Assembly: GCA_024280495.1 (NCBI GenBank)
Contig: JAJRPZ010000068.1
Location: forward strand, 1-42,481
DNA: 42,481 nucleotides
Reading direction: 5' to 3'
Source of the DNA: Alphaproteobacteria bacterium
GTDB taxonomy: Bacteria > Pseudomonadota > Alphaproteobacteria > Caedimonadales > UBA9215
Shown: positions 573-42,003 of the stretch, piece by piece
Position numbering within the stretch: position 1 is the first letter of the stretch
How the letters are laid out: each line of letters starts with the position of its first letter
Made by a program: the position numbers and the translations under genes
Notes under the pieces: model-generated
The model's database searches: none
Seen by the model: the letters and a program-made list of their open reading frames with translations, nothing else
What the model was told of the DNA's origin: nothing

Positions 573-615
573 AAAATATTTCAAAATATTTTTTTGCATC
601 ACAGGCGCTTTTTCC

Positions 616-644
616 TTGACCCTTTTCTTTTGTCCCGCTAGAAA
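616..644 (+). promoter_or_regulatory. candidate sigma-70 promoter for tRNA-His (TTGACC-17 nt-TAGAAA)
   Basis: TTGACC at 616-621, a 17-nt spacer, TAGAAA at 639-644, about 20 nt upstream of the tRNA. The GCTAGAAATA string is shared with the tRNA-Val upstream region (34678-34687). Confidence 0.4.
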
Positions 645-665
645 TATATTATAGTTTTTAACTAT

Positions 666-743
666 GGCGGGTGTAGCTCAGTCGGTTAGAGCGCCAGTTT
701 GTGGCACTGGAGGCCGTGGGTTCAATTCCCATCACTCGCCCCA
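666..743 (+). tRNA. tRNA-His (anticodon GUG) with genome-encoded G-1 and 3' CCA
   Basis: Manual cloverleaf: acceptor GCGGGTG/CACTCGC, D arm GCTC..GAGC, anticodon stem CCAGT/ACTGG with loop TTGTGGC, T arm GTGGG-TTCAATT-CCCAT. An extra 5' G at 666 can pair with discriminator C740. CCA at 741-743. Confidence 0.93.
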
Positions 744-818
744 TTTTTTCTTAGGGCTCATTATAATGGGTGACATGAAAGTGGTAGTTTGAAAATTATA
801 TATACTATTAGTGTTGAT

Positions 819-908
819 GGATGGGTGGCCGAGCGGTTGAAGGCACCGGTCTTGAAAACCGGCAAGGGTGAAAGCTCTTCGTGGGTTCGAATCCCACCCC
901 ATCCGCCA
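819..908 (+). tRNA. tRNA-Ser (anticodon UGA), long variable arm, encoded CCA
   Basis: Acceptor GGATGGG/CCCATCC, anticodon stem CCGGT/ACCGG with loop CTTGAAA, long variable arm (AAGGGTGAAAGCTCTTC), T arm GTGGG-TTCGAAT-CCCAC, discriminator G, CCA at 906-908. Confidence 0.93.
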
Positions 909-1014
909 CTATAGTATTTTTTTTAAAAAAATCCTGTCTGAATATTCCAATCTAGGAATAAAAGATCAATCCCCATAACTTATAAGCGTGGGAGTGACTG
1001 TCAAAATACCTATA
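909..1014 (+). repeat. copy A of a dispersed ~105-bp palindromic (MITE/RPE-like) element, starting directly after the tRNA-Ser CCA
   Basis: Starts CTATAGT. Contains ATTCCAATCTAGGA and CATAACTTATAAGCGTGGGAGTGACTG, matching ATTCCAGTCTAGGA and CTATAACTTATAGGCGCGGGAGTGATTG of the reference copy at 8890-8996. Confidence 0.6.
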
Positions 1015-1108
1015 AACTTCATCTACAAGCCCCCTTCCAAAGATTCCTTGCGAAACATCCTGATTTCAGTTACTTTGAGCCCATATTAACGGCATCAAGG
1101 AGCATAAA

Positions 1109-2782
1109 ATGACTCAATATATCTACACCATGCAAAAGGTTAGCAAAACCTACCCTGGCGGTAAACAGGTCATAAAAGATATTTCTTTATCTTTTATTCC
1201 TGGAGCAAAAATTGGTGTAATTGGTGTTAACGGCTCTGGTAAATCCAGTTTTATGAAAATTGTTGCAGGACTTGATGCGGAATTTGGCGGTGAAGCTTGG
1301 GCTGCAGAGGGAACTACCATGGGGTATTTAGCCCAGGAACCTGAACTTGATGGGACGATGACTGTTAAGGAAAACATCGAAGCCGGCATCACGGAAATTT
1401 CAGGACTTCTTAAAAAATTCGAAGAGGTCAGCGGTCGTTTCGGCGAAGAAATGAGTGATGATGAAATGAATGCTCTTATCGAAGAGCAAGGTGATCTGCA
1501 AGATAAAATAGAATCTGTTGATGGATGGGATTTGGAACGCCGCATTGAAATTGCCATGGATGCGTTGCGCTGCCCCCCTGCTGATAGTGACATTACAAGT
1601 CTTTCTGGGGGAGAAAAACGTCGTGTCGCTCTTTGTCGTCTATTGATGCAGCAGCCTGATATTCTTCTTCTTGATGAACCAACCAACCACTTGGATGCAG
1701 AGTCCGTTGCTTGGCTAGATCAACATTTGCAAAATTACAAAGGCATGGTTTTGTTGGTAACCCATGACAGGTATTTCTTGGACAATGTGGTGGATTGGGT
1801 TCTTGAATTAGATCGTGGCCAAGGTATTCCCTTTAAAGCTAATTACTCAGCTTGGCTCGAGCAAAAACATAAGCGCCTTGTGCAAGAAGAAAATATCGAA
1901 TCTAATCGTCAAAAAACATTGGCAAACGAGCTTGAGTGGATAAGACAATCACCAAAAGCGCGACAAGCTAAAAACAAAGCGCGTATTCAATCCTATGATC
2001 AATTGTTGAATCAAGACATTGGAGAAAGACTCAAAACCGCTCAAATCATGATTCCTGCAGGTCCTCGTTTGGGGAGTCAGGTTCTCGAACTCAACAATGT
2101 CAGCAAGTCTCACGGCGATAAATTTCTCATTGATGATCTTTCTTTTAAAATGCCTCCTGGGGCCATTGTTGGGGTTATAGGGCCAAACGGTGCTGGTAAG
2201 ACAACCCTCACAAAAATGATAACAGGAGCTGAAAAGCCTGATAGTGGCGAAGTTATTATCGGGGAAACCGTGCAACTTGCCTATGTGGATCAAGCCCGTG
2301 ATCACCTTGATAATGATAAAACCGTTTGGGAGGAGATTTCCGATGGTCTTGATGAAATTGAACTCGGTAAAGCAAAAATGCAAAGCCGTGCGTACTGTGG
2401 CCGTTTTAATTTCAAGGGAAGTGATCAACAAAAACGTATGGGGCAACTCTCTGGTGGCGAGCGCAATCGTGTTCACTTGGCAAAAATCCTTAAAAGTGGC
2501 GCCAATTTGATCTTGCTCGATGAGCCAACAAATGACTTGGATGTTGATACATTACGTGCCCTTGAAGAAGCTCTCGTTAATTTTGCAGGCTGCGCCATTG
2601 TGGTGAGCCATGATCGCTGGTTTTTGGATCGTATAGCAACTCATATTTTAGCCTTTGAAGGCGATAGTCATGTTGAATGGTTTGAAGGTAACTATGCAGA
2701 CTACGAAAAAGACCGCAAACGCCGCCTTGGTGATACTGCCCTCACCCCAACACGTATAAAATATAAACCTTTAATGCGATAA
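1109..2782 (+). CDS. ettA: energy-dependent translational throttle protein EttA (ABC-F ATPase, two ABC domains)
   Basis: 557 aa. The N-terminus [47 protein letters not shown] is typical of EttA. Two Walker A motifs ([16 protein letters not shown]), two LSGGE signature motifs and two LLLDEPTN(H/D)LD Walker B motifs. AAGGAG RBS upstream. Confidence 0.95.
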
Positions 2783-2809
2783 ACAACTGTCATTCATCAT
2801 ATAAATAAG

Positions 2810-2837
2810 ACCTCGGATTTTTTCTGAGGTTTTTTTT
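2810..2837 (+). terminator. rho-independent terminator after ettA
   Basis: 8-bp stem ACCTCGGA/TCTGAGGT (one G-U pair), 5-nt loop, then T7 at 2831-2837. Confidence 0.65.
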
Positions 2838-2990
2838 ATGGAGATTTTTTTACCATTGGATAATATTTTTTTAAAAAAGATATATTTAAGGATCTGTTAA
2901 TACTCATTCTGTAGACATAAAACTGTAGTTTTTTTTAATATAAACGCTGGGTCATTGATAAGGCTTTCGCGTCGACTTTAAGGTATTTAA

Positions 2991-4682
2991 ATGATGCAAC
3001 AAAATATAAGTTGGTGTCAAAAAGTTCTTCTTGCTCATTGGCAGACCAAGGTAGCCCCCATAGTCATCATTATGATAATGCTTTCTCTATTTTCACAAAT
3101 ATCATTGGCTTCGGTGAAGCAAAATAACACGATTCAAGAAAAACAAATATCTTTAGATAAATATTTAAACACAACAAAATCTTTAAATTCTAAAAATGAA
3201 TTGTTGCGTAATGCTGCACGCTTTTATCAAGCTCGCCATTTTGAATCTTATTGGTATGATGGAAAAAAGCTGACTAGAAAAGCTCAAGAAGTTCTTAAAA
3301 CCCTGAACAATGCCCACCATGAAGGGTTGAATCCAAGAAATTATAGAGATGCGCTTGTGGCTGTTGATCAGGCTAATAGAGATCCTTCCAAAATAACGAA
3401 AGCTGAAATTGTATTAACATCCTATGCTCTTGAATATATTGATGATTTATTCGGGGAACGCCTTAATCCAAAACGCATAAAAAAAGAGTTATACATCAAA
3501 GCAAAAACCGTTGATGCAGTTTCCATTGCGCAAAATAAATCAAAAAAAGATCCTTCTTGGAAATGGTTTTCCTCCCTTACTCTAAAATACCCCGCTTACC
3601 AAATGTTAAAAAAAGAATTAAATGCCACTCGCGAACGATTAGTTAAAAGTCCTTATCCAGAGATATCCAATGGTGCTAAATTGGAAAAGGGTACAAAAGG
3701 TGGTCGTGTTGAAACGTTGCAATGGCAACTTTCAGCCCTTGGTTATTTGCGCCAAATTGTAACTCAAGGAGAGATCGATAAGGTAACGGACCAAGCCATT
3801 CGGGACTTTCAGAAAAGTAATAATCTTAAAATTGACGGTGTCGTTGGACCAATAACAATTGCTGCTTTAAATAGTTACAATCTTAAAAGGCGCATCCAAA
3901 AACTTATTGTCTCTATGGAACGATGGCGTTGGTTGCCTGAGGATTTGGGACAACGTTATGTTTTTGTAAATATTGCAGGATTTGATTTGAAGGCCGTTGA
4001 AAATGGTGAAACGCGTTTGCGTATGCCAGTTATTATTGGACGTAACTATCGAAAGACACCAGTTTTTTCTTCGGAAATCTATTCAATTCGTTTTAACCCA
4101 TCATGGCATGTGCCACGTAGCATTGCAGTAAAAGATAAGTTGCGTAAAATTAAAAAGGATCCAGGGTATTTAGATCGTGGGAATTTTGTTTTATATGATG
4201 CCTCAGGTTCTCAAATTAACCCCAACAGTGTTGATTGGTCTTTGGTTTCAGCGAAGAATTTCAATTATCGTTTGCGTCAAAAACCAGGGGCGCACAATGC
4301 CTTGGGGAAAATCCGTTTTTCCATCAAAACGACCTCTAATATTTATTTACATTCAACACCTAATAAGGCCCTATTTAATAAGGCCAAGCGCGCATTTAGT
4401 TCAGGATGTATTCGTGTTGGAAACCCTCAAGATCTGGCCGAATTTGTCTTTAAGGGAATGGATGATTGGACCTCCAAAAAAATTACTGCCAATATGGAAG
4501 GACTTCAAACGAAAAATGTATCTTTAAAAAATCCAGTGAAAGTTTATATAACTTACTTCACTATCTGGATGGGAGATGATAATAAACTGAAATATAGTCA
4601 AGATTTATATGGTCAAGATGCCGCCATTTGGAATGCGTTACAACAACGAACTGCGCCTAGGTTAAGATTGGCTCAATTTTGA
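2991..4682 (+). CDS. L,D-transpeptidase (YkuD catalytic domain) with a peptidoglycan-binding domain, YcbB/LdtD-like
   Basis: 563 aa. N-terminal hydrophobic anchor. PG_binding_1-like DGVVGPITIAALN. Catalytic motif IYLHSTPNKALFNKAKRAFSSGCIRV (His ... Ser-x-Gly-Cys-Ile-Arg). Confidence 0.85.
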   Translation: MMQQNISWCQKVLLAHWQTKVAPIVIIMIMLSLFSQISLASVKQNNTIQEKQISLDKYLNTTKSLNSKNELLRNAARFYQARHFESYWYDGKKLTRKAQEVLKTLNNAHHEGLNPRNYRDALVAVDQANRDPSKITKAEIVLTSYALEYIDDLFGERLNPKRIKKELYIKAKTVDAVSIAQNKSKKDPSWKWFSSLTLKYPAYQMLKKELNATRERLVKSPYPEISNGAKLEKGTKGGRVETLQWQLSALGYLRQIVTQGEIDKVTDQAIRDFQKSNNLKIDGVVGPITIAALNSYNLKRRIQKLIVSMERWRWLPEDLGQRYVFVNIAGFDLKAVENGETRLRMPVIIGRNYRKTPVFSSEIYSIRFNPSWHVPRSIAVKDKLRKIKKDPGYLDRGNFVLYDASGSQINPNSVDWSLVSAKNFNYRLRQKPGAHNALGKIRFSIKTTSNIYLHSTPNKALFNKAKRAFSSGCIRVGNPQDLAEFVFKGMDDWTSKKITANMEGLQTKNVSLKNPVKVYITYFTIWMGDDNKLKYSQDLYGQDAAIWNALQQRTAPRLRLAQF

Positions 4683-4704
4683 TAGGACTTCTGAACTAAT
4701 CAAC

Positions 4705-4760
4705 AATAAGTCATAAACCCTGCCCTCGCCCCTAGACTGGAACATGTTGGAACACTACAG
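4705..4760 (-). repeat. copy D (inverted orientation, roughly half length) of the dispersed palindromic element, filling the ldt/MFS convergent spacer
   Basis: The reverse complement reads CTGTAGTGTTCCAACATGTTCCAGTCTAGGGGCGAGGGCAGGGTTTATGACTTATT. Compare CTATAGTCATTCCCAAAACATTCCAGTCTAGGAGCGAGGGACCAACGCCTATAACTTATAGG at 8889-8950. Confidence 0.6.
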
Positions 4761-6083
4761 TTGCACTAATTGATCAGTTTTATTCTCTAATTTGCCCTTG
4801 AGGGGTTTCATGAAATAACAAGCCAGCAAAGCAATTAATAGAGAAAGTGTAACAACGGACAAGCCATAAATATAAGAATCAGCTGAGTAGACTACGCTTT
4901 CGTTCATTGTCGCACTAGCTCCTTTATCCATAAAATAACCAATAATCGGTTGCGATAGAACGCCACTAAACATACACATCATATTGTGCACACCAGAGGA
5001 CGTTGCCGTTCTCGAACGACAATTTAAGGCCGATATAGCTGAGAAGGAGAGAAATTGCCCCCCCAATCCAAGACCACAAATCAGAAGTAATACTCCAACG
5101 GTAAATAACGTTAATTCTGGTAAATAAAGCATTGCAGCAAAACTGAGAAAAGAAATTAAACCAGCAAAAAACAATGACTTACGATAACTTTCTAATTTTG
5201 CATGTACAAAGGACCATAGAGGGGCGCTTATACCAACGCCAAGATAAATCAACCATGACATATCCGTCGCAATGGCACGACTCACACTATAAGTATCTTC
5301 AATATAGGCTGCCCCCCAGAGATCGCAAAAACCACTTAATGGCATGTACATGGCAAGACCATAAATTCCTATAACCCAGGACATAGGCTCTGTGAAAATT
5401 GCTTTAAAAGATTGAGTTACATGAGTTACTTCTTGTTTCACAGACCGTATTTTTTTAGGTGAAACAATTTTCACATCTTTCACTATAAACCAAGACAGCA
5501 CGGCAAGAACACCACCACTTATGGCTAAAAGTTGCAGAGCAGACTGCCAACCTAATACATCTAATAAATAAACAAGAGGTGATCCTGCGACTTTGGCTCC
5601 TAGGGTTCCAGCAAGGAGGGTAAGCCCCACAAACAAGGGCATTTTTTTCGGATCAAACCAGAGGGAAGCTACTTTTACATTACTGAGAAACGCAAATGAA
5701 GAACCGATCCCCATCATTAATCGAGCAAGAGTTAGAATAATAGAACTTTCTGCAATGGCGAAAAGTAAAACACCAAGGGAACACATGATGATTGCAAATA
5801 CAACGGGCAATTTGACGCCGACACGATCCAAGATAATGCCTGCTGGAAGTTGCATCACAACATAGCCGATATAGTAAAATGACATAATGCTACCAAGGGT
5901 AACGGCATCAAAGCCATAAGCGACCATCAGGCTGTCGGTACAAGCATTGGGAGAAACACGTAAAATAAATTGAAAGAAGTAAAAGAGAGCGACACTTCCC
6001 CAAATAAGCAGGCCTTTTTTAAATTTTTCTTCTTTGGTTAAATTGTTATGTTGAGCACCTTTAGATGCTAAATGAGAAGTCAT
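4755..6083 (-). CDS. MFS transporter (substrate unknown)
   Basis: 442 aa with about 12 hydrophobic segments. MFS loop motif AGIILDRVG. Confidence 0.8.
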   Translation of the reverse strand: MTSHLASKGAQHNNLTKEEKFKKGLLIWGSVALFYFFQFILRVSPNACTDSLMVAYGFDAVTLGSIMSFYYIGYVVMQLPAGIILDRVGVKLPVVFAIIMCSLGVLLFAIAESSIILTLARLMMGIGSSFAFLSNVKVASLWFDPKKMPLFVGLTLLAGTLGAKVAGSPLVYLLDVLGWQSALQLLAISGGVLAVLSWFIVKDVKIVSPKKIRSVKQEVTHVTQSFKAIFTEPMSWVIGIYGLAMYMPLSGFCDLWGAAYIEDTYSVSRAIATDMSWLIYLGVGISAPLWSFVHAKLESYRKSLFFAGLISFLSFAAMLYLPELTLFTVGVLLLICGLGLGGQFLSFSAISALNCRSRTATSSGVHNMMCMFSGVLSQPIIGYFMDKGASATMNESVVYSADSYIYGLSVVTLSLLIALLACYFMKPLKGKLENKTDQLVQL

Positions 6084-6319
6084 AGGATACCTTGTTTTTT
6101 GTTTCCATCTTTTTGCGAGAAGTCATAATTGATTTATCTACAAAAGCACGGGACTTATATTTCAAGAGAGACTCAAACACGTTCTTCCCCGATAAACACC
6201 ATCAAATTATATGGTGTAAAATGACTATTTGTAAAGAAAATTAAAATATTTTTTAATAAAAAGTTCATTATTAATCCTGAGTGCTTCACTTTTTTACCAG
6301 AAAATGCTATGTTCAATCT

Positions 6320-8221: not shown

Positions 8222-8860
8222 ATGGGATCTAGAGTTTTAAAATTATTATTTATCACCTTGATTCTTTTGTGCCTTTTGAGTATCTTTCTTTATTTCAACC
8301 GTCCCCCCTCTTCTCTTGAGGGTACGTCAAGTAATTCTATTGCCTCTGTTAAAGTTGGAAAATCCTATGGTCAAGCCACTATTGGTGGTCCCTTTAAATT
8401 AATAGACCAAAATGGGAAAACGAGGACTCAAGCCGACTTTAAGGGTAAATTCATGATTGTGTATTTTGGCTATAGTTTTTGTCCAGATATATGTCCAGCG
8501 GCTCTTTATAATATGACTCAAGCCTTTGATGAACTTTCTTCAAAGGAACTTTCTCAATTCGCCCCCCTTTTTATTACCATTGATCCCGAACGAGATTCCG
8601 TTGAAAACCTCAAAACTTATATGCAAAATTTTCACCCTGCCATCATTGCACTCACGGGGAGTAATGAGAAACTAACTCCTGTCATCAAGGCTTATCGGGT
8701 TTATGCTAAGAAAGCAAAACCAGACGGAACCGCAACGGAGTATTTATTAGATCATTCTTCCATTGTTTACCTTATGGACCGTCAAGGACGCTTTATCACT
8801 TCCTTTAATCACCAAACAGATCCAGAAACAATAGTAAAAACATTACGAGCTGTTCTCTAG
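8222..8860 (+). CDS. SCO1/SenC family copper chaperone (thioredoxin fold)
   Basis: N-terminal TM anchor. FGYSFCPDICP (CxxxC) and the downstream His in LLDHSSIVYLMDRQG are typical of SCO proteins. Confidence 0.88.
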   Translation: MGSRVLKLLFITLILLCLLSIFLYFNRPPSSLEGTSSNSIASVKVGKSYGQATIGGPFKLIDQNGKTRTQADFKGKFMIVYFGYSFCPDICPAALYNMTQAFDELSSKELSQFAPLFITIDPERDSVENLKTYMQNFHPAIIALTGSNEKLTPVIKAYRVYAKKAKPDGTATEYLLDHSSIVYLMDRQGRFITSFNHQTDPETIVKTLRAVL

Positions 8861-8889
8861 TTCATTTCATAAAAAAGACAAATCCTTTC

Positions 8890-8996
8890 TATAGTCATTC
8901 CCAAAACATTCCAGTCTAGGAGCGAGGGACCAACGCCTATAACTTATAGGCGCGGGAGTGATTGACGACGTCTGGAATGTTTTGGGAATGACTATA
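8890..8996. repeat. reference copy B of the dispersed palindromic MITE/RPE-like element (107 bp)
   Basis: Perfect 25-bp terminal inverted repeats, TATAGTCATTCCCAAAACATTCCAG at 8890-8914 and CTGGAATGTTTTGGGAATGACTATA at 8972-8996. Central palindrome GCCTATAACTTATAGGC at 8935-8951. Related copies at 909, 4705, 22964 and 38855. Confidence 0.8.
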
Positions 8997-9201
8997 TTTA
9001 TGATGGTTCCTTTTTGGAATCTCTATAATCCCTACCATTTCCTCCCCCCTCCTTCTCTCTTATTATTCTGTGACTATTTCTTTTGTTTTTGACAATGAGT
9101 TTTATGCAATTCGACCCTTCGTTATTAAAACTTGTATAAATAATGCCTAGTAATTATATATGTAGTGTAAATACTTATTAAACAAAACAAGGGTCTATGA
9201 T

Positions 9202-9969
9202 ATGAAAAACCAAATTTCAAAAAAATCTATTTTTGCACTATTATCAACTGTTGCAGTTCTAGGAAGTGTAACAGTTCAAGCAACTAACTATGACTATGAT
9301 GACGATGATTTTTATTATCACAATATGGGCTTTGGTGGGGAATCTCAAGATATCTCCTTTATTCCTACTCCTAGTGAAACAAACGAGATTATTACTAATG
9401 CTCCAAAACAAATAGGAGACTCAGTGGTTTCTAAAATTGAAGAATATGTTCCTGGAGGATCTTACCTAACGGGTGCGACAAAGAAATTTTCAGGTTTTTT
9501 CGGTTACGGCTCTTTGACTGAAATGGTTGTAGATACGGCTAGCAAACCTTTTAAAATTAAAAAAGATGAGTGTCCTGATACTTATACAGGATATGTAAAA
9601 GAACTAGCAATTCAAAATGCAAATAGTTTTGTAGGATTTTTTCCAGGCATAACAAAGGATGACGCAAAGGTCGTTAAAAAAATATTTTCTATACTGAAAA
9701 AATATGATCATGAAAAAGATACCTTAGAAGATATTATAGAACGTGAACTTATTAATAAAATACCATCAGGTTCTAAGATTGGTGGTATGACAGCCAAGCA
9801 ACTCGTTGATCGTCTTGTTCCAGGTGGTGAATACATAACAACTGCCACTGGTTTTCTTGCTAAAAAAACAACGGGTAAAGATACGTTAACAGAAGCCGTA
9901 CTCGCAAACATGGGAGGGATTTTTGACTATGACTTCAAAGATTTCTTTTATGCACAATACGGTAATTAA
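9202..9969 (+). CDS. secreted hypothetical protein with an internal duplication (VPGG-x-Y-x-T-x-AT ... LTE module) and an aromatic/Gly C-terminal tail
   Basis: 255 aa. AAGGG RBS 8 nt upstream. Sec-type signal MKNQISKKSIFALLSTVAVLGSVTVQA/TN. No recognisable catalytic motif. Confidence 0.7.
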   Translation: MKNQISKKSIFALLSTVAVLGSVTVQATNYDYDDDDFYYHNMGFGGESQDISFIPTPSETNEIITNAPKQIGDSVVSKIEEYVPGGSYLTGATKKFSGFFGYGSLTEMVVDTASKPFKIKKDECPDTYTGYVKELAIQNANSFVGFFPGITKDDAKVVKKIFSILKKYDHEKDTLEDIIERELINKIPSGSKIGGMTAKQLVDRLVPGGEYITTATGFLAKKTTGKDTLTEAVLANMGGIFDYDFKDFFYAQYGN

Positions 9970-10100
9970 TAAGAATTTCCCCCTATGAGGAATCTTCATC
10001 GGGGGATTCATAAAAAAGAATTTGCATTATTGACAATATGTCATTATATATTATGCAGTGAATAATAAATATAACATTTAAATCATTAGGGGATTTAACT

Positions 10101-11303
10101 ATGATGAAAAAACAACTAACAGCCTTTATTTTTGGCTCAACCGCCTTGGTAACTTCTATGAGCTTTTTGCCATTAGCAGATGTTCATGCGGGTAATTTCA
10201 CAGACTCTTTAGACATGAACAACCTTTCAAGAAGTGTTTTTGCTAATCCTGGTCAGGCCCGTGGCCATTCGGAAAATTTGTTTAATTCCATGCGTCATGA
10301 TAATAAAGTAAATGCATCAGCTTATACAAACGTTTCCATGTCAAAAGAGGATAAAATCCTTTGGGCAGCAAAATCAGCGGCTGCTACATACCGTTATATG
10401 GGTAGTGACACTGATACTGATCAATTTAAGGCTAATGGCAAAGTTTCAATAGAAAAGCGTCTTGATCTTGGTGAGCAATATGTGTTCGGTGGAACAAATA
10501 TTGAAGGAGACGAGTTCTCTCAGGGTGGCCACATATTTTATAAGTGGAACAAGGAAACTGGACGTCACGAATTGAATGTTGCATTTCGTGGTACAGAAAC
10601 TGGTGCGGACTGGGGATATAACTTTGATGTGAAAAAAGCTAAAAATGTCTTTTTCGCAGGAAAAGAAATGTCTTTACATTCTGGATTTTACAACCGTTAC
10701 ATGGCCATGAGAGACTCTTTAACAAAAAATATTAGTAAAATATTGCTAGAAAAAAATATTACAGATTTTAGCAAACTTGATATTACTGTTACGGGGCATA
10801 GTCTTGGTGCTGGCCTTGCTGGTATTGGAGCCGTTGATTTAAAATATTATTTTAATCAAATTGCTCGTTTTCATAAGTCAGAACCAGTTACATCATTTGA
10901 TGTTATCACATTCGCACAACCAAGATTTGCAGGAGAAAGAACTGCAAAGTGGATTAGTAATTATTTAGGTAATGACCATATCACCAGAATTTGGGGGTCA
11001 TATGATCCAGTAGCTGCTGTTGGCCTTGGAAAAATGGGTTATAAACATGTTGGACGCAGCGGTGGATATATGCTGGATAACCTCAGTTGGGTTATATCTA
11101 AAGACTATAAAGCCCTTCACTCCATGGGTAATTACTTAGATGCAATCTTGAACAAACAAAAATTAATTCACTACAAGGGAAAAGTTCATGGTGTCGGGCG
11201 TCAAGCTACGAGAGCTGCTAATGCACTTAAAAGCCAAGCCACGAAAGCAACTAAAGGTGTTACAAATATCTTTAAAAATGCCTGGGGAAAAGTTTGGGGC
11301 TAA
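10101..11303 (+). CDS. secreted class-3 (fungal-type) lipase family protein
   Basis: 400 aa. AGGGGA RBS. Signal peptide ...SMSFLPLADVHA/GN. Nucleophile elbow ITVTGHSLGAGLAG preceded by AFRGTE, as in Lipase_3 proteins. Confidence 0.85.
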   Translation: MMKKQLTAFIFGSTALVTSMSFLPLADVHAGNFTDSLDMNNLSRSVFANPGQARGHSENLFNSMRHDNKVNASAYTNVSMSKEDKILWAAKSAAATYRYMGSDTDTDQFKANGKVSIEKRLDLGEQYVFGGTNIEGDEFSQGGHIFYKWNKETGRHELNVAFRGTETGADWGYNFDVKKAKNVFFAGKEMSLHSGFYNRYMAMRDSLTKNISKILLEKNITDFSKLDITVTGHSLGAGLAGIGAVDLKYYFNQIARFHKSEPVTSFDVITFAQPRFAGERTAKWISNYLGNDHITRIWGSYDPVAAVGLGKMGYKHVGRSGGYMLDNLSWVISKDYKALHSMGNYLDAILNKQKLIHYKGKVHGVGRQATRAANALKSQATKATKGVTNIFKNAWGKVWG

Positions 11304-11327
11304 CCTAAGAAGCTAAAACAAATAAAA

Positions 11328-11352
11328 GGCGGCAAAGGTCGTCTTTTTTTTT
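11328..11352 (+). terminator. rho-independent terminator after the lipase gene
   Basis: GGCGGC-AAAG-GTCGTC hairpin (two G-U pairs) followed by T9 at 11344-11352. Confidence 0.55.
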
Positions 11353-11502
11353 GCAAAAAAAACATTCTAACTGACAAGTAATTAAATAATTAATGTGTTT
11401 TTTATTATTTTGAACTTGAATATTAAAGTATTAATAACTATATATTTAATGGACTAGGTTTGACATAAGCAACAATTATTTTTTAATAAGGGGAATATGA
11501 AT

Positions 11503-13479
11503 ATGAAGAGACAAATTAGTGTAGGCGCGATCATTATTAGCATGGTTTTTTTTGCACCTAATGCATATGCAACGTCAATTTCTGTTGAGAATGAAGAAAG
11601 TTTTGTAACAAGTCGTGGCATAAATGTTTCAACATTACAAGATTGTCAATATGACTCAGCCTCTTTTAGAGTGAGAGCTGACAAATCTAATTTACCCCAT
11701 GAAAAACGTCGTATTCTTTCCTTAGATGGTGGCGGTATTCGCGGGCTTTATGAAATTGCTATGCTGGCCGTTTTAGAAGAAATTATTTTATCTAATAATG
11801 TCGGCAACCCAGACGCTCGCATTTCGGATTATTTTGACGTTGCTGGTGGCACATCGACAGGTTCCATTCTTGCAGCAGGTCTATTTTACGAAGGTAGTCA
11901 AGGCACAAAATATTCTGCCATTGACCTTTTGAAACTATATTCACGTTATGGTAGTGAGATTTTTGATGATCACAAAAAAACACTCGGTGGTGCATATGGT
12001 TCAAAATACACAGCAACTGGTCTAAATGATTTATTGGTCGCGCACTTTAATGATGATCACCTTAATAATACAGTTGTGGATAATTTTGGTGATCCAAAAC
12101 ATATTTATGTTATTGGATTCGATTGCAGTGAGCATAAACCTGCTGTTTTCTCCACGACTCCACTTGAAAATCCCCTTGAACGTCAATACAATTACCATAC
12201 TCGTGCATTAGTTGAAGCTATTGGCGTATCAACAGCAGCACCAGTTTTCTTTCCTGCATGTGATGTTATAAAAAACTATAAAACTGTTCAAATGAAAGAT
12301 GGTGGCTTGGTTGCCAACAATCCTTCCTACCTTGTGTATCAAGCAGAAAATTCAAGCTATGGTGGCATAACTGGTGCAAATTATGAAATTTACTCCTTCG
12401 GAACGGGTGTTACTCCTATTGAGATGGGCGAAAATAACATGGGAGTTACTGCTGTTAAGCCCCTAATAGAAGAAGTTTTTTCGGCACAGGTTAGTGCTAC
12501 AGTAAGAAGCTGTTACGATGAAGTCATCACACCCAATAGTAAGTTAACTTACTTTGTCCGATTTCAACCTCAACTTGAAAAGGGTATGGGGGAAATGGAT
12601 GATACCAGTGATTCTTATGTAAATTATGCAATAAACAAAGCATATGAAGTGGTGAAAGGAGAGGTGTTTGCAGATATGTTGATCCAGCTTGGTCTTGAGA
12701 CTCCAGAAAATTTCGACGAAATATTTAATGATATTGGATTTAAACTCCATTCTCTTTCGTCAAAAAAGTATGAAAACTTTAAATATTTTGAAAAAAAATG
12801 GCTCCTTCGAGAAATATCTAAACTTAACTTTGAGCTATTTGAAAATGTAAATGTCAACGGTGAAATTTTAACCGATGAGGAAACTGTTTCCATATTGTTT
12901 GCAGCTATGGGCACGGCTGAAAAAGAAAACGAGGCAATGTTTAATAAGATTTTATCTTTATTTAAGACCACAAAAAATGACTTTATCTCTCAAGTCATAC
13001 CAAGAGGTCTAGATTTTCACAATAAAGTAAAATCACGTGAGACATTGAATATCGACGAAGAGCCTTTAGCTGGCTTAGTTAAAGATATTTTTGCTGAATT
13101 TAGAGAGTTGTGTGATTCTAAATCAAATGAGAATGGTTACACCTATTATGAACATAAGAGTAAATATATAGATCTTGTTGCCGATATATATTGGAAAAAT
13201 AAATTAAAAAATATAAAAGGAGAGGATGCTTTTAATTATTTAAATGATTTATACCGATCACTCTTTAAAGAAGCCGTAAATACCAATATTGAAAAAGCAA
13301 AACTTAATAAATGGGTAGCTGAAGTCTTTTATGCGTCACGTGAATTTATTCTTAAGGATCAACTTGCCGCTTATATCAAAAAATATTTCCCTAATGAAGA
13401 CTTTACTGAATTGAGCTCAAAAGTTGGTGATAAAGTTGGAGAAATATTTGATTATTTCAAAGGTTGGTTCGGCTATTAA
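11503..13479 (+). CDS. secreted patatin-like phospholipase with a ~250-aa uncharacterised C-terminal extension
   Basis: Oxyanion motif LSLDGGGIRG, nucleophile GGTSTGS (G-x-S-x-G) and catalytic Asp in MKDGGLVANNP. Signal peptide ...FFAPNAYA/TS. The AAGGGG RBS spacing favours ATG 11503 over ATG 11497. Confidence 0.88.
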   Translation: MKRQISVGAIIISMVFFAPNAYATSISVENEESFVTSRGINVSTLQDCQYDSASFRVRADKSNLPHEKRRILSLDGGGIRGLYEIAMLAVLEEIILSNNVGNPDARISDYFDVAGGTSTGSILAAGLFYEGSQGTKYSAIDLLKLYSRYGSEIFDDHKKTLGGAYGSKYTATGLNDLLVAHFNDDHLNNTVVDNFGDPKHIYVIGFDCSEHKPAVFSTTPLENPLERQYNYHTRALVEAIGVSTAAPVFFPACDVIKNYKTVQMKDGGLVANNPSYLVYQAENSSYGGITGANYEIYSFGTGVTPIEMGENNMGVTAVKPLIEEVFSAQVSATVRSCYDEVITPNSKLTYFVRFQPQLEKGMGEMDDTSDSYVNYAINKAYEVVKGEVFADMLIQLGLETPENFDEIFNDIGFKLHSLSSKKYENFKYFEKKWLLREISKLNFELFENVNVNGEILTDEETVSILFAAMGTAEKENEAMFNKILSLFKTTKNDFISQVIPRGLDFHNKVKSRETLNIDEEPLAGLVKDIFAEFRELCDSKSNENGYTYYEHKSKYIDLVADIYWKNKLKNIKGEDAFNYLNDLYRSLFKEAVNTNIEKAKLNKWVAEVFYASREFILKDQLAAYIKKYFPNEDFTELSSKVGDKVGEIFDYFKGWFGY

Positions 13480-13518
13480 CAGTTGAAATCATAAATAAGA
13501 AAGATAACTAGCAAACAT

Positions 13519-13542
13519 CCGCGGGGCAAGCCCCGCGGTTTT
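13519..13542 (+). terminator. rho-independent terminator after the patatin gene
   Basis: Perfect 8-bp GC-rich stem CCGCGGGG/CCCCGCGG, loop CAAG, then TTTT. Confidence 0.75.
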
Positions 13543-13568
13543 ACATCAGCTTTATAAAGGACTATATT

Positions 13569-14654
13569 ATGGAATTAAGTAAGAAATTATTTGTCGCAGT
13601 TTTATCATTTTGGTCTATTGCTGGCAATGCCACGTCTATAGATACTGATAATTCAGAATTAATAACACAAAAAAGTTATAGCGAAATCTTACCTCTTGAG
13701 AAACAGCAATACCTTACTGATCTCGGTTACCACGTTCTAGGACGTTTGACCCATGGTGAGGAAATTGATTTTCAAAATGAAACTTTTTTTGACGGTTTAA
13801 ACTTAAATGAATTTAAAGCTGACGTGGAATATTCGAAATTGGCTAAATTTGCCATTTTTTCAAATAATACTCGTTGGTTACTCTCAAGTTCCGATGATTC
13901 CTATAATCAAGAACGCAAAAATCGATTGACGGCAATTGCTGCCATCATGTGGGCTTTCACTGATCTTTCTCATAAGAAAAATAGTGTTTTTTCAAGGGGG
14001 GCTTATACAATAATGGACCCTAACCATAATGTTGCTAATTTTTTTATGGATTACGTAAAGCTTGTAACGGGGTCAGATAATCCAACTGAAACACACTGTG
14101 CCCTAACAAAAAGCAATTTTGCCTATCGCAGACTTCCAGAAAAAGGCGGATCAAGTCATCACAAAGGACGCACACCCTTGGGGCAATTTGGAATTGATCT
14201 ACGTTTTGAATCTTGGGAAACTTTGATGAGTATATTGCCTTTTTCCATGGCACATATTTTATTTGGCCAATTAGATATAGAAGAAGACCAACACCTTTTA
14301 TTTGTAAAACCAGAACCCGTTGGCCTCGGAAGTAAAGGTGAGTTTATGGATCACAGCTGTCATTTTTTAAACAGTGGTCATGTTGAAAATGATACACGTC
14401 GTGAAAAAGATATTAATCCAAAAATAATAACAGCATTTCAAAATATTATAGAAACATCCGATTTGGAAAATTCAGCCACTACTGTAAGAGATATGATATT
14501 AACCGCAAAAGAAATTGAAAATAAAAATTTTATTTCAGAAACAACAAGAGGTGCAATAAATGATTTCAATGATGTTATTGAAAGCTTATATTCAGAAGAT
14601 AACAATGAAATTCGCATTGGTAACGAAGTTATCCTAGACTTAAGTCAACTTTAA
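13569..14654 (+). CDS. secreted hypothetical protein (no recognisable domain)
   Basis: 361 aa. AAAGGA RBS 8 nt upstream. Signal peptide MELSKKLFVAVLSFWSIAGNA/TS. It has its own terminator-bounded upstream region. Confidence 0.7.
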   Translation: MELSKKLFVAVLSFWSIAGNATSIDTDNSELITQKSYSEILPLEKQQYLTDLGYHVLGRLTHGEEIDFQNETFFDGLNLNEFKADVEYSKLAKFAIFSNNTRWLLSSSDDSYNQERKNRLTAIAAIMWAFTDLSHKKNSVFSRGAYTIMDPNHNVANFFMDYVKLVTGSDNPTETHCALTKSNFAYRRLPEKGGSSHHKGRTPLGQFGIDLRFESWETLMSILPFSMAHILFGQLDIEEDQHLLFVKPEPVGLGSKGEFMDHSCHFLNSGHVENDTRREKDINPKIITAFQNIIETSDLENSATTVRDMILTAKEIENKNFISETTRGAINDFNDVIESLYSEDNNEIRIGNEVILDLSQL

Positions 14655-16153: not shown

Positions 16154-16906
16154 ATGCCTAAAGCCCTTCCTTCCCCTCAGATGTTATCAGAGCTTAACCC
16201 TGACGCCATACCACGTCACGTAGCTTTGATTATGGATGGGAACGGGCGCTGGGCAAGTGAACGCCATCAGCCTCGACTTTTTGGACATAAAAAAGGCGTG
16301 GAGGCCCTTAAAAAAGCTATAAATTATGCACTTAAGGCTAACATTCCTTTTTTAAGTGCTTGGGCTTTTTCTACGGCAAATTGGAAGCGTCCCAAATCCG
16401 AAGTTTCGGGTCTCATGACTATTTTACGTCATACTCTTGAAAAAGATATCGATGAATTTCATGAGAAAGGTATTTGCCTTCGCGTTATCGGTTTTTTGAA
16501 TGACCTGGATAAAAACTTACAAAAAATCATCCAGAACGCACAAGAACGCACTAAAAATAATTCCGCACTCACCCTTATTATTCATTTTAACTATGATGGC
16601 CGAAAAGACATGGTTCAAGCCGTTCAAAAGCTCAGTGAAAAGGTAAAATCAGGGGAAATATTATCAGAGAGTATCACCGAAGATATGATCAGCCAAAACA
16701 CACTCATGGCAGAATTTACTGACCCTGAACTTCTCATTAGAACTTCTGGAGTTGTTCGCCTGAGTAATTACATGATGTGGCAATGTGCCTTTACAGAGCT
16801 TGTTTTTATTGAAAAGAACTGGCCTGATTTCACAGAAGAGGATTTTCATGGCGCGCTGCTCAAATTTCAAAAAACAGCTCGTAATTTTGGGCAAGTTTCC
16901 ACATAG
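16154..16906 (+). CDS. uppS: isoprenyl transferase / undecaprenyl-diphosphate synthase
   Basis: IPRHVALIMDGNGRWA, FSTANWKRP and LLIRTSG..RLSN motifs. Confidence 0.95.
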   Translation: MPKALPSPQMLSELNPDAIPRHVALIMDGNGRWASERHQPRLFGHKKGVEALKKAINYALKANIPFLSAWAFSTANWKRPKSEVSGLMTILRHTLEKDIDEFHEKGICLRVIGFLNDLDKNLQKIIQNAQERTKNNSALTLIIHFNYDGRKDMVQAVQKLSEKVKSGEILSESITEDMISQNTLMAEFTDPELLIRTSGVVRLSNYMMWQCAFTELVFIEKNWPDFTEEDFHGALLKFQKTARNFGQVST

Positions 16907-16994
16907 AGTCATTTCAAAAAGGTTCCATATTGCATCTGCCTCCCTATTCTGATGTAGCTACCCTAAGTTATGACTCATAAATTAGGAGCATCCA

Positions 16995-22963: not shown

Positions 22964-23004
22964 TATAGTCATTCCCCATAAGCAAAAAATTAATCAACTA
23001 TAAG
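22964..23004 (+). repeat. short or deleted copy E of the dispersed palindromic element
   Basis: TATAGTCATTCCCCATAAGC ... CTATAAG shares the left terminus TATAGTCATTCCC with copy B. Only about 40 bp long. Confidence 0.35.
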
Positions 23005-32264: not shown

Positions 32265-32574
32265 CGTTTCATGATAACTCTAAAATATAACTAAACTCTT
32301 AATAAAATCCTCAATAAAAAAATGACGATGATTAATGAAATTCACGATCAAAATTAACGTTTTTAAAACCATTATTGAGTAGAATAAAGATAGAAGGTGA
32401 TCAGAAGGGACTCTGATGATAATAGGCCTCTCCAAGAGGATGATATAGTTGATTAGTTTTCTGTTTAAGAGCGCAACAACAAGTTGTAAACGTAAAAATG
32501 ATTATCTATAAGGCGCAATAATAAGAATAATCGCCTATTCCTATTACTAGTAATTAAGAAGAGGGAAACGTGAT

Positions 32575-34699: not shown

Positions 34700-34774
34700 G
34701 GGTGCGTAGCTCAGCGGGAGAGCACCACATTGACATTGTGGGGGTCGCTGGTTCAATCCCAGCCGTACCCACCA
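34700..34774 (+). tRNA. tRNA-Val (anticodon GAC), encoded CCA
   Basis: Acceptor GGGTGCG/CGTACCC, D arm GCTC..GAGC, anticodon stem CCACA/TGTGG with loop TTGACAT, T arm GCTGG-TTCAATC-CCAGC, discriminator A, CCA at 34772-34774. Confidence 0.93.
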
Positions 34775-34779
34775 TTTCT

Positions 34780-35376
34780 TTACTTTATCTTGACGACGTA
34801 TGGAATCTTTTTAGAATGATTATATTTCCAGCATCCCATTAGGTGATCATTGACCATGCCGACGGCCTGCATATAAGCGTACATAATAGTGGGGCCAACA
34901 AACTTCATACCGCGTTTCTTGAGATCTTTTGAGAGCGCGCGGCTAATGTCCGTTTCCGTTGGTAATTCCGCATAAGTTTCACATTTATTTTTTGCTGGCG
35001 GTGTTGTCACATAAGCCCATAGGTAATTATTAAAGCTATCAAACTCTTTCTGGATTTTTAAAAAGGCCATGGAGTTTTTCCGAGTAGCATAAATTTTTAA
35101 GCGGTTGCGAATAATTTCTGAGTTCTCAGTTAAAGCATCAAGTTCATCATCACTCATATTTACGATTTGTTGAGGGTTAAAGTTATAAAAAGCTTTTTTG
35201 TATCCTTCTCGTTTTTTAAGAATGGTTTCCCAGCTGAGACCTGCTTGTGCGCCTTCAAGAATAAGGAGCTCAAAAAGCGCTCTATCATCATGCTGGGGGA
35301 TGCCCCACTCATGATCATGGTAATGAGCATAAAACTCTTGGCCAGGTTTGTTCCCAAAACATCTATTTCTGGTCAT
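34780..35376 (-). CDS. tag: DNA-3-methyladenine glycosylase I
   Basis: YHDHEWGIPQHDDRALFELLILEGAQAGLSWETILKKREGYKKAF is a near-consensus Tag N-terminus. 198 aa. Confidence 0.92.
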   Translation of the reverse strand: MTRNRCFGNKPGQEFYAHYHDHEWGIPQHDDRALFELLILEGAQAGLSWETILKKREGYKKAFYNFNPQQIVNMSDDELDALTENSEIIRNRLKIYATRKNSMAFLKIQKEFDSFNNYLWAYVTTPPAKNKCETYAELPTETDISRALSKDLKKRGMKFVGPTIMYAYMQAVGMVNDHLMGCWKYNHSKKIPYVVKIK

Positions 35377-36150: not shown

Positions 36151-36271
36151 AGAGCGTTAAATTCCTTGGATATTGTTAATTACTATAGATACATATAGTC
36201 ATTTTTTATTAGGCTGCCGCCGAAAAATGAACTTTGATTTTCTAGTTGTTCGCCCTACAGAATTCCAAAAA

Positions 36272-38854: not shown

Positions 38855-38953
38855 CTATAGTCGTTTCAAAAACTTTCTAAATCTCGTTAATCATTCCGGT
38901 CCCTATAATTATAAGCGTGGCGCCTCGATTATAGACAGGGGTCTTTTTGAAAT
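38855..38953 (+). repeat. diverged full-length copy C of the dispersed palindromic element, between tadA and cmk
   Basis: Starts CTATAGTCGTTTCAAAAACTTTC (copy B: CTATAGTCATTCCCAAAACATTCC). The core CCTATAATTATAAGCGTGGCGCCTCGATT matches CCTATAACTTATAGGCGCGGGAGTGATT. Confidence 0.55.
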
Positions 38954-38957
38954 ATTT

Positions 38958-39416
38958 TTATTTGGGCGCGTTAAGCGTGCGTTTATTTTTAAAAAAATTA
39001 ATCAGTATAGAAGAACACTTTGACTCTAAAATACCTCCATAAACCTCAGGAATGTGATGACAGGTTTTCTGGGAAAAAATTCTAGCCCCATGATCAATTC
39101 CCCCACCCTTTGGATCATATGCTCCAAAATAAAGACGTCTCACCCTTGCAAAAGCAATGGCCTGCGCACACATGGCACAGGGTTCAAGGGTCACATAAAG
39201 ATCACAATTGCTAAGGAAAATAGTATCAAGGGCCAATGCACCTTCTTGTATAACAAGGATTTCTGCATGGGCCGTCGGATCTTTTCGCATCATTACAAGA
39301 TTATGAGCTCGTGCAATAATGTCACCATCACACACAAGGACAGCTCCTACGGGCACCTCATCTAAAGCTTTTGCTTTTTCTGCCTGCCTAAAGGCCGCAT
39401 GCATGGAAGTAGACAT
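38958..39416 (-). CDS. tadA: tRNA-specific adenosine deaminase
   Basis: HAEILVI (H-A-E) and LEPCAMCAQAI (PCxxC) zinc-binding motifs. 152 aa. Confidence 0.92.
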   Translation of the reverse strand: MSTSMHAAFRQAEKAKALDEVPVGAVLVCDGDIIARAHNLVMMRKDPTAHAEILVIQEGALALDTIFLSNCDLYVTLEPCAMCAQAIAFARVRRLYFGAYDPKGGGIDHGARIFSQKTCHHIPEVYGGILESKCSSILINFFKNKRTLNAPK

Positions 39417-39726: not shown

Positions 39727-39874
39727 AATGTATTCCTTTTCTTTTTATTACTCACTATTAAATTAGCATTTTTCATCACCGAGTCAAAGTGATATATAAA
39801 AGGATTTCCTTACATAATGACTCTACAAATATCTCAGAGGTCGTTCTTTATGCCTCGTGTAAACAAAAAAATAA

Positions 39875-40906
39875 TCAACCACAATTATTAGGAACTGTTT
39901 TTTTCTGAAGGAAAAAAGAGGCAATCATAACCCCCCCCATACCTACCAAGATAATTGGCCAAGTCAAGTTACCAACAAAATATTCTATGGTTAGATAGGT
40001 TATGTATCCAAAAGAAGCAAGGATAGTCACTAACAAAATCATCTTATTTTTTAGAATATAGAAATTTCCAAAACCTATTAGTATAAATAGAGCAAAAAAG
40101 ATTTTCAAATCAACTATGGACAAAAGAATTGCGCCCGTAATGAAAAAAACTAACATATTAATAAAAAAACCGAAGCCACTGATGGATTTATAGGGACTTT
40201 TTTGTACGCACCATAAAATCACATTCATAGCAAAAGTACATAAAAGGATATATAGAAAGACAATTTCCACCCCAACGATTTTTCCAATATCATTTTTTAA
40301 ATAATGGAAAATCATAATTGCCATAGAGGAATCTCTCAAAATAAGAAAGTAAGATGAATACCAGACAACAGACATTAAGCACAACCCAAAGAATACCAAA
40401 ATTGTAGAAGGTGCCTTTCGTAAGGCAAGAGCGATCTGTAATAATAATATTATTGAGATGAAAAAACTTAATAAAAAAAGGTCATCTCCATTTGGATACA
40501 TTTCTTTTGCAAATACTGCAAATCCAATAATTTTTAAGGGAATAGAGAGTACCAAAAGAGGATTTATAAAATAAATAAATAAATCACCGTTGTTTTTCCT
40601 TCTTTCTTTTTGATACCATAACATGGACGCAACAAAGAAAAACTCCCCAATACCATATGTTAAAAAAACGCGAAAAACCGAGTTAAGACTTGACCAATAA
40701 TTTTGAATAAACATCCATACCCCAGAAAATAAAAGCGTACATGCAATATAAAGTGATATTATAGAAAAACCATATAACTGTTTTTTATTTTTCGAACCTT
40801 GTGACGCCGCTGCTTTTGAAACATCAGATACAGTAATATTTTTTTCTTTCATAAGGGCTAAAATATTTTTGATATTCTGGTTTTCGAGGTCAGTATTATT
40901 ATTCAT
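39875..40906 (-). CDS. polytopic inner-membrane protein of unknown function (about 9-10 TM) with a short soluble N-terminal segment
   Basis: The ORF is open to 41014, but ATG 40906 overlaps the upstream gene's TAA (ATGAATAA), suggesting coupling. Very hydrophobic. No motif recognised. Confidence 0.6.
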   Translation of the reverse strand: MNNNTDLENQNIKNILALMKEKNITVSDVSKAAASQGSKNKKQLYGFSIISLYIACTLLFSGVWMFIQNYWSSLNSVFRVFLTYGIGEFFFVASMLWYQKERRKNNGDLFIYFINPLLVLSIPLKIIGFAVFAKEMYPNGDDLFLLSFFISIILLLQIALALRKAPSTILVFFGLCLMSVVWYSSYFLILRDSSMAIMIFHYLKNDIGKIVGVEIVFLYILLCTFAMNVILWCVQKSPYKSISGFGFFINMLVFFITGAILLSIVDLKIFFALFILIGFGNFYILKNKMILLVTILASFGYITYLTIEYFVGNLTWPIILVGMGGVMIASFFLQKKTVPNNCG

Positions 40907-41581: not shown

Positions 41582-42003
41582 GCGTGCAAGGGACCTATAA
41601 GCCGGGTTTTGTCTTTTATACATAGATTACTCTGTAATAAAAAGGACGACCATTTATCTAGGCCCACCGTTACCGATGGGCTCAAGCGATCTACCCGGAC
41701 GACGATGCAGAAACACACCCTAATATCATCCCTATTTGATCTTGCTCCAGGTGGGGTTTACCCTGCCAATTCTGTCACCAGAACCGCGGTGCGCTTTTAC
41801 CGCACCTTTTCACCCTTACCTTCGCTCAACGGCTCTAAAACTTAGAGTACCCGATAAAAGGCGGTATATTTTCTGTGGCACTTTCCCTAGGATTTCTCCC
41901 GCTGGACGTTATCCAGCACCTTGTTTCTGGAGAGCCCGGACTTTCCTCACCCCTATCCAAAAATATTCGAGATAGAGCCGCGGTCGTCCAGTCCCTTGCA
42001 CTT
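41582..42003 (-). ncRNA. rnpB: RNase P RNA, bacterial type A
   Basis: The minus strand contains GAGGAAAGUCCGGGCUC (plus-strand GAGCCCGGACTTTCCTC, about 41932-41948), GGGUGAAAAGGUGCGGUAAAAGCGCACCGCGG and ACAAAACCCGGCUUAUAGG. P1 forms from GUGCAAGGGAC (5' end) and GUCCCUUGCAC (3' end), followed by a U run. Confidence 0.93.

Follow-up and report, generated by a model that had tools for sequence, protein, structure and literature searches.

The window, the whole 42,481-nt stretch of DNA analysed here, is contig C93 of a 1.14 Mb genome assembly (G000; 99 contigs, 39.5% G+C, 89% completeness). At positions 8890–8996, 29 nt past the stop of a SCO1-like gene (8222–8860), it holds a 107-bp element, copy B, with the sequence TATAGTCATTCCCAAAACATTCCAG-(57 nt)-CTGGAATGTTTTGGGAATGACTATA. 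The perfect 25-bp terminal inverted repeats and the central palindrome described in an earlier note on this DNA can be read directly from these positions. The left repeat (8890–8914, plus strand), presumably a transposase binding site, is the perfect complement of the right repeat (8972–8996, plus strand), and the palindrome, GCCTATAACTTATAGGC, occupies 8934–8950. These limits include the flanking T and A of a presumed TA duplication, and the element scores as a full-length, plus-strand copy of a MITE family, referred to as family 1 (nhmmer E 9.8e-31). Six bp downstream lies a solo right-end remnant of another copy (9003–9027, plus strand), which matches the consensus end at 20 of 25 positions and L009 1620–1638 with 2 mismatches in 19. 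Copy B and this solo end form the exact left border of a gene block at 9202–14654, the intervening stretch being 8861–9201. From 9202 onward this block adjoins the SCO1-like gene in no congener, and the MITE may mark a rearrangement or insertion boundary.

To judge the remaining copies, an iterated nhmmer profile was searched against the window by itself. Two of the relatives listed in the earlier note were recovered as near-full or degenerate family-1 copies: that given as 38855–38953 lies at 38857–38953 on the minus strand (E 1.5e-14), 4 nt past the stop of ORF 38958–39416 (minus), and that at 909–1014, on the plus strand directly after the tRNA-Ser gene, gave a profile match at 940–1002 (E 2.3e-9). 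The inverted copy given as 4705–4760 is real and on the minus strand, but only a left-half fragment is present, at 4706–4752 between convergent genes (E 4.4e-4; BLAST 28 nt, 86% identity). The relic at 22964–23004 (plus strand) is also real, although comparison with the consensus of a second MITE family (family 2) showed it to be a chimera, with 13 nt of family-1 left end joined to a family-2 right end, rather than a plain family-1 relic. The weak copy suspected at 36190–36215 was not upheld, as it has about 10 nt in common with the family (TATAGTCATT) and was absent from the nhmmer matches even at E 20. Besides the solo right end at 9003–9027, two fragments had been overlooked, namely a solo terminal-repeat fragment, TAGAGTCATTTCAAAAAGGTTCCAT, at 16904–16933 (plus strand; 3 mismatches in 25, E 5.8e-3) and a family-1 right-end fragment after tRNA-Val at 34790–34824 (plus strand; BLAST E 4.6e-5). 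Comparison with the family-2 consensus identified a family-2 MITE with an internal deletion at 32444–32509 (plus strand) and a hybrid at 39815–39879 (minus strand) whose left half is of family 2 and whose right end is of family 1.

The fragment at 34790–34824 codes for the last ~14 codons (ending in YNHSKKIPYVVKIK) of ORF 34780–35376 (minus, 198 aa), whose stop at 34780–34782 is located just beyond the MITE sequence, and it has taken the place of the original C-terminus of this ORF. The window contains tRNA-His (667–743), tRNA-Ser (819–908) and tRNA-Val (34700–34774), and MITE remnants directly follow two of these three genes. The RNase P RNA (class A, 318 bits) is present at 41582–41999 on the minus strand.

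Size, host range and composition of the repeat families

Within the whole G000 assembly, the iterated nhmmer profile located 60 distinct family-1 loci, far above chance. A dispersed palindromic family had been proposed on the basis of at least 4–5 copies in 42 kb, and the outcome considered capable of overturning it, a genome-wide search without further copies, did not occur. The family-1 loci include 29 that cover at least 95 of the 105 profile positions, and the ~25 full copies gave the best E-values, from 1e-31 to 1e-17. The BLAST comparison of copy B with the genome, suggested as a check, likewise gave many full-length matches on other contigs of G000, at 82–93% identity. The 23 near-full copies within 4 profile positions of both ends were aligned, near-full copies giving profile matches ~100–116 bp long, and the consensus reads T/ATAGTCATTCCAAAAAGGTTCCAGTCTAGGAGCGAGGGACCAACGCCTATAACTTATAGGCGCGGGAGTGATTGACGACGTCTGGAACCTTTTTGGAATGACTAT/A. 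It contains stops in five of six frames while the sixth is fully open, and its longest open frame spans 35 codons; in agreement with the earlier note, the 107-bp element encodes no transposase.

Family 1 is present in four of the five genomes of one uncultured Holosporales genus (G000, G002, G003 and G004), and its consensus had no match in the congener G001 nor in 36 more distant genomes from other genera, families and classes. The G000 copies show a mean pairwise identity of 83% to one another and 74–76% to copies of the other three genomes. The 25-bp ends are nearly invariant across species, and it is the interior that distinguishes subfamilies and sets the G000 copies apart. When named genomes were scanned for the right end, 13 occurrences came from three uncultured MAGs carrying the label Holosporales or Alphaproteobacteria (UBA9215, Dive96_bin4.281 and ERR2762125_concoct_1), and two extra matches in Firmicutes look like chance. 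No match to the element was found in the plasmid collection, an exact-protein look-up returned no strain-level relatives, and two metagenome scans, one using a degenerate SCO1 C-terminus pattern and one a G000-specific MITE core, found nothing. In the literature searched, no paper links Holosporales with IS630 or MITEs and no repeat elements are described for the group.

Self-comparison of the G000 genome revealed family 2, ~105 bp in length and present at 30 loci (TATAGTTGATTAGTTTTTTGTTTACACGAGGCGTAAGGGACGACGGCTATACTTATAGCCAAGGAGCGCAGCAACAAAGTGTAAACGTAAAAATGATTAGCTATA), with ends TATAGTTGATTAG...CTAATCA(A/G)CTATA. The central palindrome is a module common to both families, and hybrids of the two occur at C49:3877–3981 as well as at window positions 22964–23004 and 39815–39879. 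Among the 22 family-2 loci that adjoin a gene 3' end, 12 have the stop of the gene within the first 8 nt of the element. In truncated family-1 copies, 14 of ~32 internal breakpoints fall at the central palindrome (profile positions 45–58 of 105), and both nested MITE insertions are located at the central TA. Between species subfamilies, the central stem also differs by about three compensatory changes. Conceivably, both MITE families constitute one modular system, in which two arms are joined at a centre, CTATA-N-TTATAG, that mimics abutted ends and is either recognised by the transposase or is a favoured TA target. Elements would then nest, shed halves and swap arms, and self-targeting together with the stop-recreating TA-TAG would permit low-damage multiplication in a very compact genome. 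The breakpoints, central-stem changes and hybrids amount to few events and are suggestive only, and the modular reading as a whole is considered unlikely.

Other repeats were encountered in the course of this comparison. A 99-bp insert at C27:14374–14472 splits a family-1 copy at its central palindrome, carries its own 8-nt inverted termini (CAATCACT...AGTGATTG) and has CTATAA repeated on both sides; it was rejected as a third family, being unique in the genome. Another repeat of ~9 copies, whose sequence resembles a transposase-gene 3' end, is present at G000 contig ends (C13:1–146, C69:1–139, C94:1–116, C97:1–124, C26:20062–20203, C14:3435–3575 and C49:4866–5078). Further short repeat families exist in G000, for example GGAAGTGTAATGAACTGAGTG... 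and TTGGCTCTCCCTCAA..., and the contig-end and short repeats appear to cause many assembly breaks.

The partner insertion sequence and the target site

An insertion sequence (IS) with the same ends as the MITE was identified in the congener G003, as a 910-bp unit at L030 1052–1961 (contig C67 of G003). Its ends, TATAGTTCTTCCAAAAAGGTTCCG and CGGAACCTTTTTGGAACGACTATA, agree with the MITE consensus in 21 and 22 of their 24 bases, and the left terminal repeat of copy B likewise shares 21–22 of 24 bases with them; similarity between MITE and IS is limited to the terminal ~24 bp. The IS is flanked by TA on each side (gtatgcTA/TAGTTC...GACTA/TAtattcc, the slashes marking its borders) and codes for HTH_Tnp_IS630 (PF01710, E 3.6e-31) and DDE_3 (PF13358, E 9.6e-32) domains. 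The C-terminal half of the transposase alone scored 99.9 bits against the NCBIfam IS630 model NF033545, for which the cut-off is 100. In the IS consensus, the transposase stop codon (TGA) of the right end is located inside the inverted repeat. In G003, four fragments at contig ends match the IS ends with 100% identity, which indicates that this genome contains several identical copies of the IS. The transposase consists of two ORFs offset by +1 that overlap at an A8 run (L030 1404–1411), a single intact frame being absent, and one A fewer in this run would fuse both frames. The A8 run is also present in L031 (G000:C36). The G003 transposase is a candidate for the mobilising enzyme and may be either expressed through slippage or a very recent pseudogene.

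Pfam DDE_3 is present in all five genomes of the genus. In the 89%-complete, 99-contig assembly of G000, however, no intact transposase with these ends was found, and only remnants of the IS remain. These comprise a 5'-truncated remnant broken at a family-2 MITE fragment (C36:12206–12892), a right end (C94:7433–7529) and two left ends (C44:12123–12211 and C17:3544–3645). Other DDE_3 matches, on C37 in G000 and at L032 in G002, belong to different IS630-like elements without these ends. A composite IS formed by two family-1 ends 0.5–3 kb apart was also sought in G000; the sole candidate, C61:17896–21086, was rejected, as its two half-copies are independent of each other and lie around gloB-like and ntrY-like genes.

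Because the MITE and the IS share their ends, we infer that the MITE has been moved in trans by an IS630-type transposase, and the IS ends in the congener lend support to the mobilisation in trans that had been suggested earlier. A transposase of the IS630 family (Tc1/mariner-type DDE), encoded elsewhere, would bind and cleave at the 25-bp terminal repeats, excise the element and paste it into a TA dinucleotide. The TA would be duplicated on insertion, which would explain why nearly every copy reads T/ATAGTC...GACTAT/A. Since only broken IS remnants are left in G000, its copies, at their mean identity of 83%, most likely represent the decaying fossils left by a past burst, and the family is probably immobile in this genome at present.

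The sequences flanking the copies are consistent with such a mechanism. Most of the 23 near-full copies have a T immediately before and an A immediately after them, and bases further out are not conserved. As TA is its own complement, T and A flanks alone do not separate a duplication from a longer repeat; the TA duplication that the earlier note had considered possible but ambiguous therefore fits the flanks, and for family 1 its ambiguity stands. More direct evidence comes from a nested insertion at C68:20127–20327, where a family-2 copy lies inside the central palindrome of a family-1 copy. If TAG...CTA and one TA are removed, what remains is a family-1 copy of consensus length, which can be aligned over the junction to ~20 other copies, whereas removal of TATAG...CTATA leaves the family-1 copy 2 bp short. 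A TA duplication is thereby shown for family 2, whose TATAG termini are the same as those of family 1. The IS630 family is known for TA duplication and, by analogy with family 2 and with this behaviour, family 1 presumably duplicates TA as well. A filled and empty pair with alignable flanks was not found for family 1, for which the TA could formally be the repeat's own, and a search for paralogous empty sites was productive only in the case of family 2 nested in family 1.

The comparison of empty and filled orthologous sites, which had been put forward as a check, was made by searching the flanks of eight other copies together, and two sites proved collinear in the congeners. One of them, C53:17273, follows an htrA-like gene; it is filled in G000 and contains no element in G001, G003 and G004, and the fmt-def spacer (C27:18412), also filled in G000, contains none in G001–G004. 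The insertions at both sites are specific to the G000 lineage, although the spacers at the empty sites are too diverged to reveal the exact empty TA. Copy B has no comparable site in the congeners because gene order is heavily scrambled within the genus, the order downstream of the SCO1-like gene differing in every congener. Similarly, neighbouring genes of window positions 600–6200 are found on different contigs in each of G001–G004, at nucleotide identities of 66–81%.

Placement beside genes and hairpin structure

To describe the positions of copies relative to genes, G000 was annotated by a simple longest-ORF gene call (1024 ORFs, 89% coding). The spacers holding family-1 copies are co-directional in 34 cases, convergent in 8 and divergent in 4, and 12 copies overlap an ORF end. 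In co-directional spacers, 33 of 39 copies are closer to the upstream stop than to the downstream start (p = 1.4e-5), usually at 0–8 nt from that stop, which bears out the original impression that copies lie mostly just downstream of genes. In a test that took each spacer, often tiny, as given, the excess of copies near stops was not significant (9 observed against 7.1 expected), and such counts do not separate target preference from selection. For this reason, we ascribe the stop-side placement chiefly to selection removing insertions from promoters and genes, with the terminal TAG as an aid, and not to a proven target preference. In this way, copies would survive where harm is small, a few bases past stop codons in a compact genome, and since the element has TA-TAG at its end, a gene hit on or near its stop codon would still be terminated. 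The stop codon of an ORF is located inside the element at eight family-1 and twelve family-2 loci, for example in TAT AGT CAT TCC AAA AAG GTT CCA GTC TAG and in the terminal TA-TAG itself.

Several ORFs thus run a few codons into a copy (for example, ending in YSHSKKVPV before the stop), ORF 34780–35376 of the window ends in a MITE fragment and one of the six consensus frames is open throughout. These features would suit a repeat like the Rickettsia palindromic elements (RPEs), inserted in frame into genes and adding peptide segments. However, all overlaps with ORFs are at the extreme 3' end or over an over-called 5' start, and no insertion in the interior of a gene was seen among the copies. 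The family is moreover confined to one Holosporales genus and has an IS630 partner, which RPEs lack. An RPE-like nature is accordingly regarded as highly improbable; of the likeness to RPEs drawn in the earlier note, a loose analogy survives without the in-frame insertion inside genes.

Copy B, when folded as RNA in the manner proposed at the outset, forms a long hairpin with a 25-bp stem on either strand (-56.7 and -54.9 kcal/mol, z about -10). This stability, together with the position of 33 of 39 co-directional copies near the upstream stop, raises the possibility that copies are kept by the host, whatever their origin, as functional 3'-end RNA hairpins acting as mRNA stabilisers, RNase III/RNase E sites or terminators. 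Correia and ERIC elements have documented effects on transcripts (PMC10969869, PMC2229807), and the compensatory changes in the central stem between species subfamilies would point the same way. In addition, one strand of the element folds better in 21 of 23 copies, by 6 kcal/mol on average, because its arm mismatches are G-U compatible. The strand read through from the neighbouring gene nevertheless folds no better than the other (-34.3 vs -34.1 kcal/mol, p 0.85). As the asymmetry is independent of the transcribed strand, it is read as inherited from a master copy.

Other observations also speak against retention for a host function. The orientation of copies relative to neighbouring genes is unbiased (22:17). 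No terminator-like site was detected at window positions 8700–9300, no U-tract follows the hairpin, and the flanks after the stem vary between copies. At copy B no promoter signal rose above chance, with no IHF site or outward promoter detected, and Rfam gave no match to the element. Across 21 copies, the arm helix is paired in 89% of cells and the stem as a whole in 90.7% of cells, barely above the 89.3% obtained in column shuffles, and within G000 the arms have decayed at rates similar to the interior (80% vs 85% identity). Furthermore, the orthologous sites in sister species function without the element. These results also count against a small-RNA role. Selective maintenance as RNA hairpins is therefore considered improbable, although co-transcribed hairpins may have incidental effects on mRNA, as with Correia and ERIC elements (PMC10969869).

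The palindromic, intergenic and abundant character of the copies had also suggested a REP-like structural or terminator element, of which REP/BIME-like repeats spread by a RAYT (IS200-type tyrosine) transposase would be the model. This proposal failed on several points, the lack of a U-tract and of an orientation bias among them. No RAYT gene (Y1_Tnp, PF01797) was found in G000 by a search that was positive in 6 of 14 control genomes. The 107-bp unit with its 25-bp terminal repeats also differs from a 20–40-nt hairpin, and its ends match those of an IS630-type IS. A RAYT-spread element is thus already contradicted and its probability is close to nil. Instead, copy B and its relatives very probably represent a previously undescribed family of non-autonomous, IS630-type MITEs, an ordinary kind of selfish DNA. 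The first of the identities proposed in the earlier note, a MITE, is the one that agrees with the 25-bp terminal inverted repeats, the ~60 dispersed loci, the absence of a gene of its own and the ends common to an IS630 IS.

Comparison with known systems

The element has the defining features of a MITE, with its own target duplication and mobility presumed. The IS at L030 resembles members of the IS630 family (Tc1/mariner superfamily) in its HTH_Tnp_IS630 and DDE_3 domains, inverted repeats and TA flanks, and differs from them in being short (910 bp) and in having a transposase split over two frames with an overlap at an A8 run. The ~90 loci of both families break the assembly, adjoin rearranged gene order and alter the C-terminal codons and stops of several genes. 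It is therefore advisable that annotators of these MAGs mask both families.

In common with RPEs, the family consists of palindromic repeats of ~100–150 bp and occurs in an intracellular alphaproteobacterium with a reduced genome. RPEs, which stand out for inserting in frame within genes, have no known transposase, whereas the copies described here are only intergenic or at gene ends and have an IS630 partner.

A closer architectural parallel is found in the Correia elements of Neisseria (NEMIS), which form units of ~107 bp (also a 155-bp form) with terminal repeats of 24–26 bp, terminal TA and TA duplication, give rise to long-hairpin transcripts and are often close to genes (PMC2229807). The length of ~107 bp with terminal repeats of similar length, the TA termini and the proximity to genes are shared by both. 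The present family differs in that an IS630-type IS with the same ends exists and in that no IHF site or outward promoter was detected. We know of no cognate transposase assigned to Correia elements. Their end, TATAGTGGATTAA, may resemble the ends of family 1 (TATAGTCATTCC) and of family 2 (TATAGTTGATTAG). On this putative likeness of termini, it may be speculated that Correia elements are orphans of the same transposase class.

The nearest precedent is RUP of Streptococcus pneumoniae, a 107-bp MITE that inserts at TA and is attributed to IS630-Spn1 through common ends (PMC2229807). Both are 107 bp long, non-coding, multi-copy and intergenic, with insertion at TA, presumed for the present family, and IS630-family ends that are taken as a sign of mobilisation in trans. 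The two have no sequence relationship, and the terminal repeats, listed as 9 bp for RUP (PMC2229807), are 25 bp here. The family described here further differs in its host, an uncultured Holosporales symbiont, in being accompanied by a second family with a common centre and by hybrids, and in having a partner IS that is already degraded in G000. After RUP and IS630-Spn1, it is a second clear example from bacteria of a MITE tied to an IS630-type partner via common ends, here in Holosporales symbionts of protists. Within this group, G003, with its putatively live IS, and G000, with a dead IS and decaying MITEs, form a small natural series in which MITEs would outlive their transposase during genome reduction.
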